Part shown: in pieces, positions 31,694-58,619 of the stretch
How positions within the stretch are numbered: position 1 is the stretch's first letter
Layout: each line of letters begins with the position of its first letter
NCBI GenBank assembly: GCA_008933735.1
Contig: WBUL01000003.1
Span: forward strand, 235,019-299,018
DNA: 64,000 nucleotides
Origin: Anaerolineae bacterium
Lineage (GTDB): Bacteria; Chloroflexota; Anaerolineae; Aggregatilineales; J027
Direction: 5' to 3'
Notes under the pieces: generated by a model
The model's database searches: none
Seen by the model: only the letters and a program-made list of their open reading frames with translations
What the model was told of the DNA's origin: nothing
Position numbers and translations under genes: made by a program

Positions 31694-32152
31694 TTACTCG
31701 GACAGGAGTTGTTCGGCTTCTCGCAGCGCATCACCGGCGGTCAAGACCATCCGCACCCCTCGGTCAATGACATCGGGCGGAATTTCGGTGCGCGGATTCT
31801 CGCATTCTGCCTGCCACAAACGCACCGCGTCTGCCAGTTCTACTGCCGCCGTGCGAAGTTCCATTCCAATTGGCTGGTCATCCGAAAAACGTTCCGGCGA
31901 AATGATCTCATATTCCGTACCACACTGCGCGGTTTCCCCTCTGGAAATTGCTCCCCAGACGGCATCCATGCTGGTATGCAGTTGGCGAAGCTGTTCAAAT
32001 CCCGTTTCATAGGCCTGTCGTTCTTCCAGCGACAAGGTTGGGGGGAAATTTATTATAGTAGCGGAGGGAGGGATAACTTCCTTTCTATTTTCTTCATCAG
32101 AACAGGCGGCTAAGACACCACAGATCAGGAATACCAGAACGATTTGTCTCAT
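31694..32152 (-). CDS. Hypothetical lipoprotein
   Basis: Lipobox LAAC. Helical domain with two further Cys. Overlaps the hemW stop. Confidence 0.7.
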   Translation of the reverse strand: MRQIVLVFLICGVLAACSDEENRKEVIPPSATIINFPPTLSLEERQAYETGFEQLRQLHTSMDAVWGAISRGETAQCGTEYEIISPERFSDDQPIGMELRTAAVELADAVRLWQAECENPRTEIPPDVIDRGVRMVLTAGDALREAEQLLSE

Positions 32153-33303
32153 TTTTTCTCCGGTAAAAGTGCTTGAAAGACACGATTACTAATTAACCGC
32201 GCCCGCGAGGTAAGGGTAAGGATATTGTCTCTTTCCTCAATCAACCCCTGGGTTTTAAAGTTTTGGATGACTGCTCCGTAGTGCGACTCCAGACTTTCGC
32301 CAAATCGCTCCTCGAAATAGGCACGCGACAGCCCCTCTTTAAGCAGTCGCAGCCGCAGCATGGCGGTTTCAAAGATTTCCTCATTGCGGTCAATCTTGAC
32401 AATGGACTGGTTCGCTGCGGTGCGCGGGTATTCCATCACAGCGGTTTGCCTGCTCAGACGCTCGATGTACTTCTCAGGCCGCATCACATTGACCGTCCGA
32501 TGCCCCCCAGCGTACCCATGGGCACCTGCGCCTATACCCAGATATGGCAGATTGTACCAGTATTGCAGGTTGTGCAAACTGGGTTTCCCCCAACTGCTGA
32601 TCTCATATTGTTCAAATCCGGCTTTACCTAGAATCTCGGTAGCGGAATCATACATGTCGGCGGTCAGGTCATCATCCGGCGCGGGCAGTGCACCATATTT
32701 TATCTGGCGGGCAATCTCTGTGCCGGACTCCACCTGCAAAGCATAGAGCGAAAAATGGGTAGGTTGCAGGCTGAGGGCGTGTTCAAGGGTTTGCTGCCAC
32801 AGGATCAGTGTCTGATGCGGAATACCGTAGATTAAATCCAGACTGATATTGTCGAATCCGGCCTGCCGCGCCATGCGGATGCTGTTGGCGGTCTCATGAT
32901 TCTGATGGTCACGCCCAAAAAGAGACAGCTCCGAATCGTGTGCCGACTGCATCCCCAGGCTCAAACGGTTGATGCCCAATTCGCGCAGTTCATCACAATA
33001 ACGCTGCGTGACCGCCCCCGGATTCGCCTCAAGTGTAATTTCTGGACATTCTATTACGTCAAAGGAGTTCTGTACGGCATCTAAAATTTGTTTCAACTGC
33101 TCGGCGCTGAGCAGGTTGGGGGTACCCCCTCCCAAATAAATGGTATGGACTTTTTCGCCGTGTGTCAGCCACCGAATTTCCTTTTGAATGGCGTCTACGT
33201 AGGCATCTTTCAGGTGGTCGAGATTCGTATAGATGTTAAAGGCGCAATAGGTACACCGCTCACGACAGAAAGGAATGTGAAAATACAAGGACAAAAATTG
33301 CAT
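32149..33303 (-). CDS. hemW: Radical SAM heme chaperone HemW (HemN-like)
   Basis: 'YFHIPFCRERCTYCAF' (CxxxCxxC), 'GGGTP', 'EANP', 'YEISSW', 'HNLQYW'. Confidence 0.88.
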   Translation of the reverse strand: MQFLSLYFHIPFCRERCTYCAFNIYTNLDHLKDAYVDAIQKEIRWLTHGEKVHTIYLGGGTPNLLSAEQLKQILDAVQNSFDVIECPEITLEANPGAVTQRYCDELRELGINRLSLGMQSAHDSELSLFGRDHQNHETANSIRMARQAGFDNISLDLIYGIPHQTLILWQQTLEHALSLQPTHFSLYALQVESGTEIARQIKYGALPAPDDDLTADMYDSATEILGKAGFEQYEISSWGKPSLHNLQYWYNLPYLGIGAGAHGYAGGHRTVNVMRPEKYIERLSRQTAVMEYPRTAANQSIVKIDRNEEIFETAMLRLRLLKEGLSRAYFEERFGESLESHYGAVIQNFKTQGLIEERDNILTLTSRARLISNRVFQALLPEKK

Positions 33304-33420
33304 CTTAATGATCGCTCGCCTATAATGATCTGAGAGGAAGTTTAAAAAATTCTGAACTTTCCAGTCAAGGTAGCACGCCCCAATGATTCATCTGCAATTT
33401 TTTGTATCTGTCGAGGTATT

Positions 33421-35322
33421 ATGGTAGACACAAGGCGGTTTGCACGGGAAGCCGACAAGAGTTTGTTAGGAGTAAACAAGGCTCTTCAGGCAAATTCGAT
33501 TCTACAGAATCGGTATCGGATTGAAGGCGTTCTCGGTGTGGGAGGCATGGGGTCTGTTTATCAGGCTCGTGATTTACAATTCCCTGATGCGAAACGCTAC
33601 GTAGCAGTCAAGGAGATGCTGCACCATACGAATGACCCGCAACTGCGGGAGATGGCGCTGCGAAACTTCGAACGCGAAGCGAATATCCTGGCTGGTTTGA
33701 ACCATCCTGCTATTCCTGCCATCCACGACTATTTTTCCACCAACGAGCGTGCTTACCTGGTGATGGAATACATCAACGGGAGTGACCTTGATACGGTTAT
33801 CAATCGTCACGAAGGCTTTTTGCCGGTGACCCAGGTACTGCAATGGGCAATCGAATTATGTGATGTCCTGGCTTATCTCCATAACAGCGAACCACCCATT
33901 ATCTTCCGTGATATTAAACCGTCTAACGTCATGATCGATGTACACGGGCGGCTGCGTCTCATCGACTTCGGAATCGCCAAACATTTCGAGCCAGAAACCA
34001 AAGGTACCATGATTGGGACCGAAGGATATGCCGCGCCGGAAAGCTATCGGGGGCTGGCTTCACCCTCCAGCGATATTTTTGGGGTAGGGGCGACCCTGCA
34101 CCATGTATTCACCCGGCATGACCCGCGCCTTGAACCGCCTTTTACCTTTGCCGAACGTCCTATTCGTGATGTGAACCCGGAGGTGCCGCCTGTAGTGGAA
34201 GCCATTGTGATGAAATCGCTGGCTTTCTCGCCGGAAGAACGCTACCCCACCGCGGACGCGATGAAAGAAGCCCTCAATACCGTCCTGACCAGTGGTCGGG
34301 CCAACATCCTGACCATTGCCGCAGCGGATGAGGACTGGGGCACCCTGGAGGGGACATCCGGCATCGAGCCGCGCTGGAAGGTCAAGGTAGAAGATGAGAT
34401 CCGTTCTACCCCGGTAGTGCTCGAAGGCCTGGTCTTCACCACCGCCTATGACAACAACCTGTACGCAGTGGACATCGAAAAAGGCGAGATCAAATGGAAG
34501 TTTGCGACGGATGACTCGCTGGCGTCCTCCCCTGCCATATATGAACAGGAAAGCATGGTCATTTTCGGTTCAAAGGACTACAACCTCTATGCCGTCGATG
34601 CCCGCACAGGCCGCAAGAAGTGGTCATTCCAGACGATGGGGCCGATTTACTCCTCGCCAACCGTTAAACACGGGCATGTGTTTTTCGGCAGCGACGATGG
34701 GATGCTGTATGCGCTGCGGGCTTCTACGGGTCGGCCTGCCTGGAAATATCCCATTCAAGACCCCATTCGCTGCCGTCCGGCCGTGACGGACGAGCGCGTG
34801 ATCTTCGGAACCAAAAGCGGGGAACTCTACTGCCTGGATTTAAGTGGACAGATGAAATGGCGCTTCAAGGCACGCCGCGAAATCATTTCCTCGCCGCTGG
34901 TTGTGGAGGGGTTGGTCTTTTTTGGTTCGATGGACGGGCAGGTTTACGCTGTTGATATGGAATCCAGTTGGGCGGCCTGGAAATTCCAGACCAACAAACC
35001 GGTGGTCTCGTCACCCAGTTACGGAGACGAGCGCATTTATATTGGGTCCGTCAGTGGTATAATGTACGCGTTGGATTTCAGCACAGGCAAAGAGCGCTGG
35101 GCATTTGATACAAAAAATCAGATCACATCATCGTCGGTGTTTTTCAACGGCAACCTGTATTTTGGTGCCAATGACCGCAAACTTTACTGCCTGGATGCCA
35201 AAAGAGGCAAAGAGCGCTGGTCATATGAAACAGGCAATATCGTTCCGGGTTCTCCATATGTTGCAGATGGCATTGTCTATATTGGGTCCGCCGACCAACA
35301 TCTGTATGCGTTTAAGGCCTAA
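33421..35322 (+). CDS. Hanks-type Ser/Thr protein kinase with C-terminal PQQ-like beta-propeller repeats
   Basis: GVGGMG, VAVKE, FRDIKPSN, DFG, GTEGYAAPE. About eight 'SSP..vyfGs.D..lYAvd..tG...W' repeats. No TM segment. Confidence 0.95.
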   Translation: MVDTRRFAREADKSLLGVNKALQANSILQNRYRIEGVLGVGGMGSVYQARDLQFPDAKRYVAVKEMLHHTNDPQLREMALRNFEREANILAGLNHPAIPAIHDYFSTNERAYLVMEYINGSDLDTVINRHEGFLPVTQVLQWAIELCDVLAYLHNSEPPIIFRDIKPSNVMIDVHGRLRLIDFGIAKHFEPETKGTMIGTEGYAAPESYRGLASPSSDIFGVGATLHHVFTRHDPRLEPPFTFAERPIRDVNPEVPPVVEAIVMKSLAFSPEERYPTADAMKEALNTVLTSGRANILTIAAADEDWGTLEGTSGIEPRWKVKVEDEIRSTPVVLEGLVFTTAYDNNLYAVDIEKGEIKWKFATDDSLASSPAIYEQESMVIFGSKDYNLYAVDARTGRKKWSFQTMGPIYSSPTVKHGHVFFGSDDGMLYALRASTGRPAWKYPIQDPIRCRPAVTDERVIFGTKSGELYCLDLSGQMKWRFKARREIISSPLVVEGLVFFGSMDGQVYAVDMESSWAAWKFQTNKPVVSSPSYGDERIYIGSVSGIMYALDFSTGKERWAFDTKNQITSSSVFFNGNLYFGANDRKLYCLDAKRGKERWSYETGNIVPGSPYVADGIVYIGSADQHLYAFKA

Positions 35323-35337
35323 GCAAGAGAGATAAAC

Positions 35338-36363
35338 ATGAACATCCTGCGACGTATCTTTGGAGTAGAAGCCCCGCCGCCTGCGGAGGTAACCGCGCCA
35401 CCCGCTGAAACGGCTGAAACAAAACCGTTGGATCCACTCGAAGGCCCCACCGCGCCGTTACTCCATGACCGGGTGAGTGAAGAGTCGATCAAAACGGTGG
35501 AGGTCGAGCCAGTCCTTGCTTCCACCAACATCCTGGATGGGCACACCCGGAAGCTGCCGGAGTTAGATGAAGCCGTAACCGGACGGAATGGCCGCCGTAT
35601 TACCTACGGCATCAAGACCGATGTCGGGCAGGTGCGCCAGAACAATCAGGACGCGGTTTTGTCGTTCCTGGCAACTTTTGACAGCGCCGAACGGCAGCCA
35701 GAGTTTGGGTTATTTGTCGTTGCCGACGGCATGGGGGGACATCATGACGGCGAAAAGGCATCGTCACTGGCAGCACGTGTGGTCGCACGCCATACATCAT
35801 CCGAAATCTACCTGCCGATGCTCAAGAACGAAGAGTCAGACGCCGATCGTCCCACGATTGCCGAAGTGCTGCGGCAGGCGATCCAGAAAGCGAATGAAGA
35901 AGTTTCCGTTACCGTTCCTGAAGGGGGAACAACCGTTACCGCTGTCGCCATTATTGGTGACCTGGCTTATATTGCCCATGTTGGCGACAGTCGGGCTTAT
36001 ATTATCACGCAGGATTCTATTGAGCAGGTGACACGTGACCATTCGCTGGTACAGCGTCTCATTGAACTTGACCAGTTAACCCCGGCTGAGGCGGCTGACC
36101 ATCCTCAGCGTAATGTGCTTTACCGGGCAATTGGGCAAAATGAGCATGTCGATGTGGACGCCATAACACGGCGGCTGACTGCCAACTCGCGTCTTCTCCT
36201 GTGTTCAGATGGGCTCTGGAATCTCATTCCTGAAGAAGAAATTCGTAATACGGTCATTGGTTCGCCGTCGCCCCAGCAAGCGTGTGAAACACTCGTAAAA
36301 CTCGCCAATGCAAGAGGCGGCCCGGACAATATTTCAGTTATTCTCATCAAAATACCAGAATAA
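35338..36363 (+). CDS. PP2C/Stp1-family Ser/Thr phosphatase with a Pro/Glu/Thr-rich N-terminal extension
   Basis: 'DVGQVRQNNQD', 'VADGMGG', 'HVGDSR', 'CSDG', 'GGPDN'. Confidence 0.95.
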   Translation: MNILRRIFGVEAPPPAEVTAPPAETAETKPLDPLEGPTAPLLHDRVSEESIKTVEVEPVLASTNILDGHTRKLPELDEAVTGRNGRRITYGIKTDVGQVRQNNQDAVLSFLATFDSAERQPEFGLFVVADGMGGHHDGEKASSLAARVVARHTSSEIYLPMLKNEESDADRPTIAEVLRQAIQKANEEVSVTVPEGGTTVTAVAIIGDLAYIAHVGDSRAYIITQDSIEQVTRDHSLVQRLIELDQLTPAEAADHPQRNVLYRAIGQNEHVDVDAITRRLTANSRLLLCSDGLWNLIPEEEIRNTVIGSPSPQQACETLVKLANARGGPDNISVILIKIPE

Positions 36364-36371
36364 ATACGAAC

Positions 36372-37850
36372 ATGGACGCTTCACAGGACTTATACGCCAT
36401 ACTTGGCACCAAAGCAGACGCTTCGCAGGATGATATTCGGGCAGCTTACCGCACGCTGGCACGGCGCTTACATCCCGACGCTAATCCCAATCCAGGCGCA
36501 GCCATTCAGTTCCGGGAAATTGCCGAAGCTCATGAAACCCTGGGCAGCCCCGAAAACCGCCGCAAGTATGATAATTTACGGAAACGTCTGGCCGCTGAAC
36601 CGAACTATTTTGTGACGGAAGTAACGTCCAGCAAACGGGTGCTTCCAATTCTTGGCGAACCCCAGGTGGTTTACGTTTTACTTCAACTCACCGCCCACAA
36701 GGATTTTCAGGGACAGCAAAAGCGGGTTGCGCCGTTGAACCTGGCCCTGGTGCTGGATCGCAGTACCTCGATGAAAGAGGGCGGGCGGTTGGATCGCGTC
36801 AAAGTGGCAGCGCATCAGATTATTGACCAGCTTGGCCCAGCGGATTTTCTCAGTCTGGTGTCTTTCAGCGACCGTGCCGAGGCGCTGATCAAGGCAGAGC
36901 ACGTGACAGAACCGACCGCGTTAAAGGCGCTGGTTAATCTGATGACTCCTGGCGGCGGCACTGAAATCTTCCAGGGGTTGGAGCAGGGCTTCGAACTGGT
37001 TGAAAAAAATCTGAAACCCGATTATGTGAATCACATCATCTTGTTGACAGATGGGCAAACCTTCGATTCAGAACTCCTGAGCCTGGATCTGGCAGATCGC
37101 GCCGCCAAAATCGGCATCGGCATTAGCGCGATGGGCATCGGTGACGAGTGGAACGATGCGTTTCTGGATTCACTGGCTTCTAAGACGGGGGGAACCTGCG
37201 CTTATATTAATTCCCCTGGGGCAGTGGTCAAATTCCTGAATGAACGGGTTCGCAGCCTGGGCGCTTCTTTTGCCGAGCGCATCACCGTTTCGATTGCTCC
37301 TGATCCGGATGTGTCTGTGGAGTCAGCGTTTAAACTTATTCCGGCTCCCCAGCCTATCCCAAGTGACGAGCAGCCGTTGCATCTGGGAGCTCTGGAGGCT
37401 TCGCGCTCGATCACGCTTCTGCTGCAATTGCAAATGAGCAAGGATCTGAAAGAGGGCCCCCGCAGTCTGATCCGGTTGTGTGTTACTGGTGATATTCTTT
37501 ATCCTAAACGCCCTGGTTACCAGGTGGTGGTGGATTTACCCATCCAGGCGGCTCAACATCCTGAGCCCGAAGAACCGCCGCGTGCACTGCTGGACGCGCT
37601 GGGCAAATTGACCCTCTACCGTCTTCAGCAGAAGGCGGAAGAAGCCATTAAAGTTGGGAACTATGCGGAAGCAACCCGTCAACTCGAAAATTTTGCGACC
37701 CGCGCCCTGGCTGTTGGGCATGAAGACCTGGCGCGTACTGCCATGCTGGAAGCCAACCGCGTCCAGACCACTAAAATGCTGTCCGAAGAAGGGCGTAAGA
37801 CAATGAAATTTTCAACCCGTATGCTGCTGCTCCCGGAGGGTGAGGGGTAA
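36372..37850 (+). CDS. DnaJ-domain + von Willebrand A domain protein
   Basis: J-domain 'DLYAILG...HPD...RRKYD'. MIDAS 'DRSTS', 'GGT', 'LTDG'. Helical C-terminus. Confidence 0.9.
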   Translation: MDASQDLYAILGTKADASQDDIRAAYRTLARRLHPDANPNPGAAIQFREIAEAHETLGSPENRRKYDNLRKRLAAEPNYFVTEVTSSKRVLPILGEPQVVYVLLQLTAHKDFQGQQKRVAPLNLALVLDRSTSMKEGGRLDRVKVAAHQIIDQLGPADFLSLVSFSDRAEALIKAEHVTEPTALKALVNLMTPGGGTEIFQGLEQGFELVEKNLKPDYVNHIILLTDGQTFDSELLSLDLADRAAKIGIGISAMGIGDEWNDAFLDSLASKTGGTCAYINSPGAVVKFLNERVRSLGASFAERITVSIAPDPDVSVESAFKLIPAPQPIPSDEQPLHLGALEASRSITLLLQLQMSKDLKEGPRSLIRLCVTGDILYPKRPGYQVVVDLPIQAAQHPEPEEPPRALLDALGKLTLYRLQQKAEEAIKVGNYAEATRQLENFATRALAVGHEDLARTAMLEANRVQTTKMLSEEGRKTMKFSTRMLLLPEGEG

Positions 37851-37853
37851 TTT

Positions 37854-38387
37854 ATGAAAGTATGTCCGGCTTGCCAGTTTCATAACCGGGAAGGGTTGTA
37901 TTTTTGCGATGATTGTGGCTCCCCCTTGTTTGGGGATCAGGAGGAAGTCACCATTACCGTACCATTTACCCAGAAGCTGAATAATAATTCGGCACCACCA
38001 GCGGTTATCCAGGAAATCAAAAACGTTACGCCTGTCGGTACGACCGTATTAAAGTCCACAACGGTGCTGGTAGTGAAATTTAAGCAGGCGGGCCAGGAAG
38101 TCCGTCTGGAACCACAAACTGAAATTGTATTTGGGCGGTCTGATAGTACCAGCCAAACCTATCCTGATCTGGATTTGACACCCTATGGCGCATTAGACTG
38201 CGGGGTTTCTCGCACCCATGCCGCCATCCGTCGCAAGGACAACTCGCTCATGCTGGTGGACTTAAACAGTACCAACGGAACTTTCATCAATGGGCAGCAG
38301 ATTCCCCCCGAACAACCGCATATTATCCGGGATGGGGATGAAATTCAATTTGGCAAACTCGTAGCGAATATTTACTTCAAGTCATAA
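37854..38387 (+). CDS. Zinc-ribbon + FHA domain protein
   Basis: CPAC...CDDC. FHA residues 'FGR', 'SRTH', 'STNGT', 'DGDEIQFG'. Confidence 0.93.
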   Translation: MKVCPACQFHNREGLYFCDDCGSPLFGDQEEVTITVPFTQKLNNNSAPPAVIQEIKNVTPVGTTVLKSTTVLVVKFKQAGQEVRLEPQTEIVFGRSDSTSQTYPDLDLTPYGALDCGVSRTHAAIRRKDNSLMLVDLNSTNGTFINGQQIPPEQPHIIRDGDEIQFGKLVANIYFKS

Positions 38388-38402
38388 ATAGGAGAAAAAT
38401 TC

Positions 38403-38642
38403 GTGCTAACAGTCTACGTCCATATCGATGGGCTTGAAACCACACTCATGGAAATCGAGGAAATGCCCAAGCCTACCGACACGATCATTATCGGGCGTAA
38501 CCCGCGCCGCCGGGACGGGAAAGATGCACCCTACATGCTGCCCGAAGCCAATATGGTCATTTTCCCAGTCCATCGCCTCATGTTCATCGAGGTTATGCCG
38601 ACGGGGCAAGAAGAAGAGATTGCGACCTTCATTCGTGAGTAA
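38403..38642 (+). CDS. Small hypothetical protein (79 aa)
   Basis: AGGAG RBS and GTG start. Fills the operon gap with 15 and 12 nt spacers. Confidence 0.8.
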   Translation: MLTVYVHIDGLETTLMEIEEMPKPTDTIIIGRNPRRRDGKDAPYMLPEANMVIFPVHRLMFIEVMPTGQEEEIATFIRE

Positions 38643-38654
38643 GGAGCGCAGACA

Positions 38655-39407
38655 ATGACAGTGCAGCTTCCACGGACGGCACCCAAAGAGGCCAAACGGA
38701 TTCTGGTTGTCGACGATGAGCCGCGCATGATAGGGTTCATTCGTATGAATCTGGAATTGGAGAATTTCCAGGTCATTGAAGCCCATAACGGACTGGAAGC
38801 GCTGGAAATGATCCGCACACAGATTCCTGATCTTGTGCTGCTGGATATTATGATGCCCAAACTGGATGGGTACGAAACCTTACGAATGCTGCGAGAGTTT
38901 TCCACCATCCCCGTCATCATGCTGACCGCAAAAGGGGAAGAGGAGGATATCGTACACGGTCTGGAACTGGGTGCGGATGATTACATCCCTAAACCTTTCA
39001 GCCCGCGTGAACTGACCAGCCGTGTGCGAGCCGTGCTGCGACGGGCAGAAATGCCAACTGCCACTACAGAAAAGGCTGTTTTGCGGATTGATGATCGCCT
39101 GAGCGTGGATTTCAACCGTCGTGAAGTAATTGTCAATGGGGAGCGCATTAAACTTCGCCCCACAGAATACCGTCTGCTGTTTCATCTGATTGAAAATGCA
39201 GGCTGGACCGTGCCTCATGAGCAAATTCTGGCAAAGGTATGGGGATACGAATATCGGGACGAGGCCCATTACGTTCGTCTCTACGTGAACTATCTAAGGG
39301 AAAAGATAGAGGAAGACCCCGCCAATCCCAAGTATGTTCTGACTGAACGCGGCGTGGGGTATCGTTTCGTGGATTTCCGACGGCAGGAACAGGCTGGGGA
39401 AGGATAA
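38655..39407 (+). CDS. OmpR/PhoB-family response regulator (no cognate histidine kinase nearby)
   Basis: 'ILVVDDE', 'LLDIMMP', '[10 protein letters not shown]', winged helix 'TERGVGYRF'. Confidence 0.95.
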
Positions 39408-39413
39408 GCAGGC

Positions 39414-39941
39414 ATGGCAAACTTATACAAAATCATTGTGACCGGGCCATTTAGCTGCGGCAAGACAACGTTTGTCAGCACGATCTCAGAAATTCCGGTG
39501 GTCAGCACTGAACGGAAAATTACGACCGAAGATCGGGGCGTGAAGGCTGAGACGACCGTTGCCATGGACTATGGACGGGTAACCCTGGATGGGCGCGTGC
39601 TGCACTTGAATGGCACGCCAGGGCAGGCCCGCTTTGATTTTATGTGGGAAATTCTGGCCCATGAAATGAATGGTTTTATTGTTCTGGTGGACAGCACCGA
39701 TCCGCCGTCTTTTCCGGATGCCAGTGAGCTCATCAAGTTGTTCTCAAAAATGAAACAGGTTCCCTATCTGGTGGTGGCAAATAAAGCTGACAAAAGCGGT
39801 GCGGTAAGTCTGGGGCAAATCCGGCGTGAGATGGAAATGGATGAGAATGTCACCGTCATGCCCTGCGACTCGACCAGCAAATCCAGTGTGCGGCAGGTCT
39901 TACTGCAAGTGATCGAACTGATTGAGCGCAGCCGCCAATAA
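39414..39941 (+). CDS. MglA/CvnD-like small GTPase
   Basis: G1 'GPFSCGKTT', 'TTVAMDYG', G3 'GTPGQARF', G4 'NKAD'. Confidence 0.9.
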   Translation: MANLYKIIVTGPFSCGKTTFVSTISEIPVVSTERKITTEDRGVKAETTVAMDYGRVTLDGRVLHLNGTPGQARFDFMWEILAHEMNGFIVLVDSTDPPSFPDASELIKLFSKMKQVPYLVVANKADKSGAVSLGQIRREMEMDENVTVMPCDSTSKSSVRQVLLQVIELIERSRQ

Positions 39942-39961
39942 TAGATTGATAAAAAAATCTC

Positions 39962-39998
39962 TGAAAAGGCGCAGGGTCTCCCCATCGCGCCTTTTTCA
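39962..39998 (+). terminator. Rho-independent terminator ending the kinase operon
   Basis: TGAAAAGGCGC...GCGCCTTTTTCA. Confidence 0.65.
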
Positions 39999-40063
39999 TT
40001 TCGCAACTTCTCCCTCTTGTACCGCGTATACAACTATAGACAAACTCATAGGAGGGAAGAAAC

Positions 40064-40489
40064 ATGCCCAGTGCACCCCGTTTTGATCCGATGAAAGAAC
40101 TCGCAAACCTACGCGACCAGGTCAACAAGGTTATTGGCGACACGATTGGCTCATCCGGTTTTTTACCAGTGGACATTTATGAAACCGAGGATTCCGTCGT
40201 TATTGTAACGGCGCCGCTGCTCGGCTTAAAAACCGAAACGCTGGATATTGCTATCACCGAAGGTCACCTCACGATTTCCGGCGAAACAGCCAACCCGCTT
40301 GAGGTAGACGACCGCCAGTACCTTCGTCGTGAACGTAAATTTGGGGCGTTTTCTCGCTCTGTTCCGGTTTCCAGTGTGGTGGATCCGGAAAAAGCACGGG
40401 CAGAGTTCAAAAATCAGGTTCTGACGATCTACCTGCCCAAACTCGAAATCAGCGGCCCGAAAGTCATCAAGGTTAAACCGGTGGTTTAA
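40064..40489 (+). CDS. Hsp20/alpha-crystallin small heat-shock protein
   Basis: 'PVDIYET', 'LTISGE', 'RERKFGAFSRSV', 'VLTIYLPK'. Confidence 0.93.
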   Translation: MPSAPRFDPMKELANLRDQVNKVIGDTIGSSGFLPVDIYETEDSVVIVTAPLLGLKTETLDIAITEGHLTISGETANPLEVDDRQYLRRERKFGAFSRSVPVSSVVDPEKARAEFKNQVLTIYLPKLEISGPKVIKVKPVV

Positions 40490-58247: not shown

Positions 58248-58619
58248 TTAGACGAGTTTGGTAAGGTCATCCGCTGCACGCTTCATATCCAGGAAAATAA
58301 GCCCCAATTTCGCGTTTTCGCGTACCAGGGTGGTCAACACAGCTTCTTCGCCAACGGACATCAGGATAACATACCCATTGTCACCGCGAATATAAACCTG
58401 GTCAAGCTGCCCACGACCGAGCTCGCTGGCAATACGTTCACCCAGGGACAGCATTGCCGCAGACATCGCCGATACTCGATCTTCTTCGATACCGGCCGGC
58501 AGCGCGGACGCCATAATCAGACCATCAATACTGACGACTGCCGACGCCTCAATATCAGGAGTGCCAGAAGCCAGGTCTCTTAGACGGTCAACCATTAATT
58601 CTGTACGTGATTTCGCCAT
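58248..58619 (-). CDS. Roadblock/LC7 (MglB-like) protein
   Basis: 'ASAVVSIDGLIMAS', 'DRVSAMSAAMLSLGERIASEL', 'KLGLIFLDMK'. Confidence 0.92.
   Translation of the reverse strand: MAKSRTELMVDRLRDLASGTPDIEASAVVSIDGLIMASALPAGIEEDRVSAMSAAMLSLGERIASELGRGQLDQVYIRGDNGYVILMSVGEEAVLTTLVRENAKLGLIFLDMKRAADDLTKLV

Follow-up and report, generated by a model that had tools for sequence, protein, structure and literature searches.

A phospho-signalling gene cluster of Chloroflexota as a probable bacterial counterpart of the archaeal ArnA/ArnB switch

The subject of this analysis is a cluster of seven open reading frames (ORFs) in a 64,000-nt stretch (hereafter the window) of contig WBUL01000003.1 from an Anaerolineae bacterium. 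ORF coordinates and translations place all seven on the + strand within positions 33421-39941 of the window, in the 5′ to 3′ order kinase, PP2C, J-vWA, Zn-ribbon-FHA, small ORF, OmpR-family regulator and small GTPase, with successive intergenic gaps of 15, 8, 3, 15, 12 and 6 nt:

33421-35322, + strand: kinase gene, 633 aa; Pfam Pkinase and a PQQ-type beta-propeller
35338-36363, + strand: PP2C gene, 341 aa; PF00481 (E 8e-17)
36372-37850, + strand: J-vWA gene, 492 aa; DnaJ (E 3e-20) and VWA (E 2e-18)
37854-38387, + strand: Zn-ribbon-FHA gene, 177 aa; FHA (E 3e-20)
38403-38642, + strand: small ORF, 79 aa, GTG start; no Pfam or NCBIfam family
38655-39407, + strand: OmpR/PhoB-family regulator gene, 250 aa; Response_reg and Trans_reg_C
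39414-39941, + strand: small GTPase gene, 175 aa; ATP_bind_1, Arf and Ras (Pfam)

All seven proteins look soluble, with no hydrophobic 19-mer above 1.38 on the Kyte-Doolittle scale. An earlier note on this DNA had described seven co-oriented genes with gaps of 3-15 nt and intact catalytic motifs; the coordinates verify the spacing, and Pfam, NCBIfam and the translations agree with its domain assignments and motifs. It also named the correct set of genes, while listing them in an order that differs from the actual one given above.

The predicted product of the third gene begins with a J domain (residues 1-73; PF00226, E 3e-20) that contains the HPD motif, followed by a vWA domain (122-298) whose MIDAS (metal-ion-dependent adhesion site; DxSxS...T...D) is intact. 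It is not a canonical DnaJ, scoring 65.7 against the TIGR02349 cut-off of 377. In the AlphaFold2 model (pLDDT 85.9), the vWA domain splits a beta-sandwich (80-108 and 301-394), which is completed by two strands lying N-terminal to the vWA domain, and the chain ends in a four-helix bundle (404-484). A Foldseek search with this model gave as its top match 4fx5, a vWA protein from Catenulispora (E 4.6e-25), followed by Sulfolobus ArnB (8s05_A; E 1e-23, TMt 0.66); an ArnB paralog, 5a8j, was matched at E 2.4e-19, and Sec23/24 at E 1e-11 to 1e-13.

Structural comparison by VIA gave the same two leading proteins, with a Z of 26.1 for 4fx5 (390 residues aligned, root-mean-square deviation (rmsd) 4.4) and of 21.9 for ArnB 8s05_A (366 of its 381 residues aligned, rmsd 5.0). 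These were the only whole-length matches at rmsd ≤ 5: ITIH1 (6fpy_A) aligned over 322 residues at rmsd 8.0 and the pilus tip protein 6to1 over 288 residues at rmsd 17.1, and the other VIA rows of similar Z mostly extended over some 150-185 residues, no further than the vWA domain. A sequence-profile search of the PDB returned ArnB as the best match outside the J domain (E 2.9e-17, over the vWA domain only). By this model, the fold of the vWA protein is that of ArnB.

An alignment of 32 vWA-protein sequences, 26 of them J-bearing, shows the MIDAS residues in 32/32 and HPD in 25/26 of the J-bearing sequences. One J-vWA ortholog (L031, 7989-9479, − strand) has K-A-Q replacing HPD and retains the MIDAS residues as well as the remainder of the J-like region. 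Within the helix bundle, T443 is kept in 31/32 sequences, T482 in 32/32, S471 in 31/32 and T435 in 28/32, and position 467 is T in 24 and S in 4 of the 32. These five residues (T435, T443, T467, S471 and T482) are candidate phosphoacceptor sites.

The gene for the Zn-ribbon-FHA protein starts 3 nt past the vWA gene. Its product combines an N-terminal CxxC-x10-CxxC zinc ribbon, for which the double-zinc-ribbon (DZR) Pfam match is weak, with a Thr-rich linker and a C-terminal FHA domain with an intact GR...SR.H...N motif. The four ribbon cysteines (C4/C7/C18/C21) and the phospho-Thr-binding residues G94, R95, S119, R120, H122 and N141 are present in 32/32 orthologs from several classes. The corresponding cysteines of ArnA are given as C21/C24/C35/C38 in the accessible part of PMC12852372, and the ArnA FHA domain (5a8i) was matched at E 9.6e-5 in a sequence search of the PDB. 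Judged by sequence, the Zn-ribbon-FHA protein has the ArnA architecture, with identical cysteine spacing.

The kinase contains a Hanks-type Ser/Thr domain (residues ~30-295; Pkinase, E 1e-40) and a C-terminal PQQ-type propeller (residues ~320-633; PF13570, E 1.8e-77; PQQ_2, E 6e-56), and its K, RD, DFG and APE motifs are intact in the translation. The phosphatase is of the Stp1/IreP type (NF033484, 236.6 bits against a cut-off of 230), with intact metal-binding Asp motifs and an N-terminal extension of about 90 residues rich in Pro, Ala and Thr.

The 79-aa protein encoded by the small ORF has 2286 homologs, for which every name given is "hypothetical protein"; the named ones are all from Chloroflexota, and no Pfam domain was found. 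The family is restricted to Chloroflexota. Its acidic tail ends in F-x-R-E/D in the alignment. AlphaFold2 models it (pLDDT 84.4) as a barrel of five strands with no N-terminal helix, and nearly all of the matches listed by Foldseek are LSm/Sm proteins, each weak (E 0.03 or weaker). The top rows of the VIA comparison are likewise mostly LSm/Sm, with a best Z of 6.9, where values below 8 may reflect a common arrangement alone. The protein atlas gave clusters of Chloroflexota hypothetical proteins together with Sm_like structural rows (TM-score (TM) 0.61-0.65). Taken as modelled, the 79-aa protein likely forms an Sm-like barrel. A search for fused or longer forms returned one weak 173-aa match (E 4e-7) and no informative fusion.

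Conservation of the cluster was examined at two levels. At the level of the order, 40 relatives from eight families were sampled and the loci of 20, chosen for long contigs, were compared; 19 of these are complete, and the 20th ends at a contig edge after the third gene. One full-length ortholog of the J-vWA protein (43-90% identity) is present in 37/40 relatives, and in the remaining three (G004, G013 and G040) the match is split or cut at a contig end. The six genes from the kinase to the OmpR-family regulator keep their order and strand in 19/19 complete loci, across all eight families, an arrangement conserved far beyond chance. At the level of the phylum, 112 of 301 sampled Chloroflexota genomes contain a match at E ≤ 1e-30, and a further 20 loci were compared from other families and classes. 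A five-gene core (kinase-PQQ, PP2C, vWA, Zn-FHA and small ORF) is found with its order unchanged in eleven of these, and a twelfth lacks the PP2C gene only. The remaining eight hold vWA/PP2C/kinase/FHA cassettes that are paralogous and lack the small ORF.

Full-length orthologs of the kinase (45-86% identity) head the cluster in 20/20 order loci and in 12 loci from other classes and families. In one relative (G032; L025, 10558-12464, − strand), the kinase-PQQ gene appears as two overlapping matches, to residues 1-475 and 473-633, hinting at either a frameshift or a misassembly. The earlier note had proposed a writer/eraser/reader cassette and had named loss of gene order in relatives as grounds for giving it up; kinase, PP2C and FHA genes are conserved together with the vWA gene, and the order is kept both within the order and across classes. 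The 79-aa protein co-occurs strictly with this core, and not with the GTPase or the regulator. Four loci from other classes (L131, L132, L120 and L121) mark genomes with up to three or four extra vWA+sandwich+bundle paralogs each, frequently in tandem, each near its own PP2C, kinase and FHA genes and with no small ORF; ArnB-like cassettes are multi-copy in those classes.

The other components are distributed differently. The vWA protein lacks a J domain in six of the 12 core loci (L113-L117 and L130), and the same six are without the OmpR gene or an adjoining Hsp20 gene. The OmpR gene directly follows the small ORF in 22/23 Anaerolineae loci with a small ORF (19 in the order and 3/4 in the class), and follows the core in 0/8 core loci outside the class of the window. 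The GTPase gene follows the regulator in 9/19 complete order loci and is found behind the core in 0/12 small-ORF loci from other families and classes. An Hsp20 gene lies directly behind the cluster in 10/19 complete order loci and in 3/3 class loci that have the OmpR gene, and a divergent hemW gene lies upstream in 11/20 order loci and one class locus. Because the core is phylum-wide, and the J domain, OmpR and GTPase are lineage-restricted at the locus, the unit is layered and not one seven-part machine: a five-gene core was followed by fusion of the J domain, capture of the OmpR gene and insertion of the GTPase gene. This departs from the self-contained seven-gene unit of the earlier note, since the core is old, the regulator joined in Anaerolineae and the GTPase is a duplicate present in 9/19 loci. 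Inheritance within Chloroflexota looks vertical. The full texts searched, mostly outside subscription journals, contained no paper on this Chloroflexota cluster.

The regulator is the best-conserved gene of the locus, with 70-92% identity in the order, and its receiver residues (DD/D/T/K) are intact. Its best NCBIfam scores were to RpaB (236.6 bits, cut-off 330) and MtrA (219.9 bits, cut-off 300); both fall under the cut-off, so that we assign it to neither equivalog, and it has the domains of the OmpR family. Orthologs of 65-71% identity occur at unrelated sites in 4/4 complete genomes of other classes, and no histidine-kinase family was found among the neighbours at the two such sites scanned (L139 and L140). 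The earlier note had called the regulator one without a histidine kinase, and locally it is an orphan: the 64-kb window contains no HisKA domain, and of the 53 HisKA matches in the genome, the nearest are ~7 kb ahead of the window's first position and 4 kb past its last. The regulator is a phylum-wide orphan that moved behind the cassette in Anaerolineae.

The GTPase has intact GxxxxGKT, GTPGQ and NKxD motifs, and its G1, G3 (G67-T68-P69-G70-Q71) and G4 elements and R55 are invariant in 7/7 aligned sequences. GTPGQ, with Thr in place of a conserved Asp, is the G3 motif of MglA groups 2-5 as described in the accessible part of Wuichet and Sogaard-Andersen 2014 (PMC4316618), and agrees with the MglA-like assignment made earlier; the protein is also similar over its full length to solved MglA. 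In a profile search of the PDB, Arl8 (E 3.7e-12) came slightly ahead of Thermus MglA (E 1.3e-10, over the full length). Sar1 was the best PDB match with the single sequence (E 1.9e-7) but stood behind Arl8 and MglA with the profile, and we do not retain a specific Sar1 link. GTPases of the cluster type (64-96% identity among copies) are present in about 22-24 of 41 genomes, and a paralog of ~49% identity, sited elsewhere, in 41/41; the cluster GTPase is a recent, lineage-specific duplicate of this universal paralog.

The universal GTPase paralog adjoins a gene for a 300-aa DUF4388/PATAN + MarR-like protein (L133, 5977-7467, outside the window), and a ClpB-type AAA+ chaperone gene lies ~1.5 kb from it on the opposite strand, beyond a 423-aa ORF of no family. 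A PATAN/DUF4388 context is noted for some members of MglA groups 1 and 5 in the accessible part of PMC4316618, and in this respect the paralog resembles the MglA family. Unlike MglA systems, no Roadblock/MglB gene adjoins the cluster GTPase, the nearest being 18 kb away (58248-58619, − strand; PF03259, E 1.3e-17), where a Roadblock/LC7 (MglB-like) gene lies between the CTP synthase gene and an ORF of no family. The genome contains three Robl_LC7 genes, and the product of 58248-58619 is a possible trans partner of the GTPases.

Four further features delimit the cluster:

32149-33303, − strand: hemW-like radical-SAM gene, divergent, directly upstream of the kinase gene
33298-33326, + strand: promoter-like site TTGCAT-17 nt-TATAAT, read from the sequence of the 117 nt that separate hemW from the kinase gene
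39963-40001, + strand: intrinsic-terminator-like hairpin, a GC stem between an A-run and a U-run
40064-40489, + strand: Hsp20/alpha-crystallin small heat-shock gene, 122 nt past the GTPase gene; PF00011 (E 2e-11)

The promoter-like site scores under the −35 threshold of a consensus promoter scan, and its −35-like TTGCAT overlaps the start codon of the hemW-like gene. The region's strongest sigma-70-like match lies at 35036-35063 (+ strand), within the 3′ part of the kinase gene and upstream of the PP2C gene (TTTATA-16-TATAAT with TG, 10/12 positions); it may be an internal promoter or a chance match. At the other end, folding of 39942-40010 gives a GC stem and then UUUUUCAUUU (−20.8 kcal/mol, z −4.4), and 0/200 shuffles were as stable. 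The consensus terminator scan listed no terminator after the GTPase gene; the hairpin emerged by direct folding and, with its U-run, bears out the closing terminator reported earlier. The Hsp20 gene is probably its own transcription unit. The flanking genes belong to sugar metabolism and housekeeping, and base composition is even. The flanks examined contain no effector nuclease or mobile genes and no dnaK or grpE, and no connection with DivIVA, pili or gliding genes is apparent in the neighbourhood examined.

Public RNA libraries gave evidence on transcription. At least half of the sampled words were present in 15 RNA-labelled runs from seven studies of sludge, bioreactors, wastewater and aquatic sites, and contigs were mapped for four runs from four studies, in all cases assembled contigs. 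These bridge the kinase/PP2C, PP2C/vWA and OmpR/GTPase junctions in 4/4 runs, the vWA/FHA, FHA/small ORF and small ORF/OmpR junctions in 3/4 runs each, and the GTPase/Hsp20 junction in 2/4. A single contig of 4254 nt (35070-39323) crosses five junctions. The earlier note had asked for RNA evidence of a shared transcript; every junction within the cluster is bridged, and a single transcript is more than such contigs prove. Contigs of two studies begin at 33346 and 33352, and runs X2 and X7 are without cover at 32800-33333, a weak hint, compatible with transcription starting close to the promoter-like site at 33298-33326. At the hairpin, contigs end before it in 1/4 runs and cross it in 2/4; the gap in cover of run X7 at 39815-40091 is a hint only.

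The closest known system is ArnA/ArnB of Sulfolobus acidocaldarius. According to the accessible parts of PMC6509490 and PMC12852372, ArnA consists of a zinc ribbon, which binds ArnB at its sandwich and bundle, and an FHA domain; the phosphosites of ArnB lie in the helix bundle, where phospho-Thr is read by the ArnA FHA domain. The state of the pair is set by the kinase ArnC and the phosphatase PP2A, and the module, with its kinases ArnC and ArnD, regulates the archaellum. The Chloroflexota locus shares with it the adjacent Zn-ribbon+FHA and vWA genes, the split sandwich, MIDAS and C-terminal four-helix bundle, the identical spacing of the ribbon cysteines and the presence of a Hanks-type kinase and a Ser/Thr phosphatase in the system. 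It differs in being bacterial, in holding kinase and phosphatase within the operon, in the PP2C type of the phosphatase, in the PQQ-propeller sensor and in having no archaellum, and it adds the putative Sm-like subunit, the fused J domain, the OmpR regulator and the GTPase.

A second relative is the DRA0331-DRA0334 operon of Deinococcus radiodurans, with genes for vWA, Ser/Thr protein kinase, FHA and KI-FHA-PP2C proteins, for which antagonism of FHA and PP2C on the kinases is shown by experiment (bioRxiv 10.64898/2026.01.23.701218, accessible part). Unlike here, the Deinococcus kinase is transmembrane and the PP2C has an FHA domain of its own; J-domain, Sm-like, OmpR and GTPase components are not reported in the accessible part of that preprint. 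The kind of system is already known through this vWA/kinase/FHA/PP2C operon, and what looks new at the Chloroflexota locus is the fold shared with ArnB, the putative Sm-like subunit, the fusion to a J domain and the OmpR regulator. The earlier statement that no characterised system has this composition holds for the full composition and is too strong in view of ArnA/ArnB.

We favour, at a probability of roughly 0.6, the view that the locus encodes a phospho-threonine switch equivalent, in bacteria, to archaeal ArnA/ArnB, one that was passed down vertically in Chloroflexota and acquired further parts in Anaerolineae. In such a switch, the soluble kinase would detect a cytoplasmic cue via its PQQ-type propeller, and the Zn-ribbon-FHA protein would grip the vWA protein, loosely by its ribbon and tightly by FHA-phospho-Thr contacts, until PP2C returned the switch to its start state. 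The Sm-like 79-aa protein could be a fifth obligate subunit or an output adaptor. In Anaerolineae, the J domain with its HPD motif would bring DnaK/Hsp70 to the complex or to a ligand bound at the MIDAS, the probably co-transcribed orphan OmpR regulator would be a likely transcriptional output or a second target of the kinase, and the neighbouring small heat-shock protein (sHsp) gene is a third gain; the MglA-family GTPase would be a late, optional accessory. Taken together, the J domain, OmpR and sHsp point to a nutrient or stress/proteostasis response.

Several observations weigh against this assignment. Likeness of fold does not establish function, and the interactions, phosphorylation and physiological output described here are what we infer. 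The profile match to ArnB is confined to the vWA domain, the top structural match, 4fx5, is functionally uncharacterised, and the conserved Thr residues of the helix bundle may be structural instead. In sequence, the FHA domain lies closer to bacterial FHA domains of the GarA/OdhI/FhaB type, matched at E 1e-6 to 1e-7, than to that of ArnA, matched at E 1e-4. The enzymes are also unlike those of Sulfolobus, with PP2C and not PP2A, and a PQQ-propeller kinase and not the OB/TPR kinase ArnC. For the J domain, OmpR and GTPase, all lineage additions, adjacency is the evidence for a functional tie to the core. Finally, assembled contigs give neither strand nor ends and do not establish a single transcript, DNA carry-over is possible, and the contigs of run X1 cover hemW too.

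Among the alternatives, it is rather unlikely that the vWA protein is mainly an Hsp70 co-chaperone, with MIDAS and sandwich taking a client, the J domain passing it to DnaK, the kinase, PP2C and FHA protein tuning the process, and OmpR and Hsp20 forming a heat or proteotoxic-stress regulon. The near-invariant HPD motif, the frequent Hsp20 gene behind the cluster and the divergent hemW gene kept in about half of the order loci would fit such a role, but the core exists in other classes without J domain, OmpR or adjoining Hsp20, so that chaperone coupling is derived, and the missing dnaK and grpE in the examined flanks argue in the same direction. We also think it unlikely that core, OmpR, GTPase and Hsp20 are independent and share only a transcript or a neighbourhood. 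This would accommodate the OmpR orthologs at unrelated sites in all four complete genomes of other classes, the variable presence of GTPase and Hsp20 and the strong promoter-like site within the kinase gene; it sits poorly with an OmpR gene placed right after the small ORF in all but one of the 23 Anaerolineae small-ORF loci, at a gap of 12 nt in the window.

The switch of the earlier note, in which all seven proteins serve filament growth or gliding, an AfsK-like kinase acting on transcription, on the DnaK machinery and on a GTPase of cell polarity, seems quite improbable to us. The tight spacing of all seven genes, the terminator-like hairpin at their end and the OmpR/GTPase junction bridged in every mapped run speak for it, as do the GTPGQ motif and the DUF4388/PATAN gene beside the universal paralog. 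The GTPase, however, is patchy at the locus and does not follow the core in the small-ORF loci of other families and classes; it duplicates a gene that all 41 genomes carry at another site, and the nearest Roadblock/MglB gene is 18 kb off. The kinase shares with Streptomyces AfsK the architecture of a soluble Hanks kinase followed by a PQQ-type propeller; as an equivalog it fails, with 240.2 bits on NF053615 against a cut-off of 1300. AfsK is linked to DivIVA, and no link to DivIVA, pili or gliding genes emerged in the examined neighbourhood, so that with a patchy, recent GTPase and an AfsK likeness of architecture only, the polarity analogy is weak.

A further reading, which we regard as a long shot, takes up the resemblance of the vWA protein to the Sec23/Sec24 core of COPII, which likewise combines a trunk (vWA), a beta-sandwich, a helical domain and a Zn finger. 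PDB entry 8s05 (ArnAB) is titled as an archaeal ortholog of the Sec23/Sec24 core, a relation also discussed in the accessible part of PMC12852372. The locus might then encode an ArnAB-type, Sec23/24-core-like complex gated by a Hanks kinase, which in Anaerolineae would be a platform for the MglA/Arf-like GTPase and Hsp70, with the Sm-like subunit possibly binding RNA and OmpR as read-out. Unlike Sec23/Sec24, the protein has no gelsolin domain, the TM to Sec23/24 is just 0.35-0.39, and Sar1 is not the top profile match of the GTPase.

The weakest rival, and a highly improbable one, is a TerY-P-like anti-phage or stress-defence cassette of vWA, PP2C and kinase with extra parts, which the earlier note had raised and which finds little in its favour here. 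PADLOC contains TerY-P models; it gave 0 matches for the vWA protein at E ≤ 0.001, likewise 0 for the FHA, 79-aa and GTPase proteins, and a weak one for PP2C, and although the kinase matches PADLOC kinase models, e.g. PD-T4-6 and mad6, these matches are limited to the generic catalytic domain. The triad of vWA, PP2C and Hanks kinase is the TerY-P theme, whereas TerY-P kinases bear a C-terminal Zn ribbon or OB fold according to the accessible part of PMC11090510, and the kinase here bears a propeller. The locus is also unlike TerY-P in its vertical, single-copy inheritance, with one full-length ortholog per genome and phylum-wide synteny, and in its setting, which is no defence island: the flanks are housekeeping, composition is even and the examined surroundings hold no effector nuclease or mobile genes.

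If the locus is a counterpart of ArnA/ArnB, it offers a compact system in which to study such switches, with kinase, phosphatase and small subunit in one operon of a bacterium. ArnA/ArnB has so far been archaeal, with a downstream mechanism described as still unknown in the accessible part of PMC12852372. The J domain of the Anaerolineae form is a testable link from Hanks-kinase signalling to Hsp70, and the orphan OmpR regulator, at 65-92% identity phylum-wide, is a candidate junction where Ser/Thr signalling may cross-talk with two-component signalling; the MglA-type GTPase of some families is a third testable connection. Were the Sec23/24-core-like reading true, the vWA/beta-sandwich/helical protein would be a prokaryotic example of a "coat-core" protein that operates together with a small GTPase.

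Anaerolineae are filamentous and abundant in sludge and digesters. Between 33891 and 40375, the contigs of different studies show consistent single-base differences (e.g. throughout in run X10); by these differences, closely related strains of this organism are present in several habitats.

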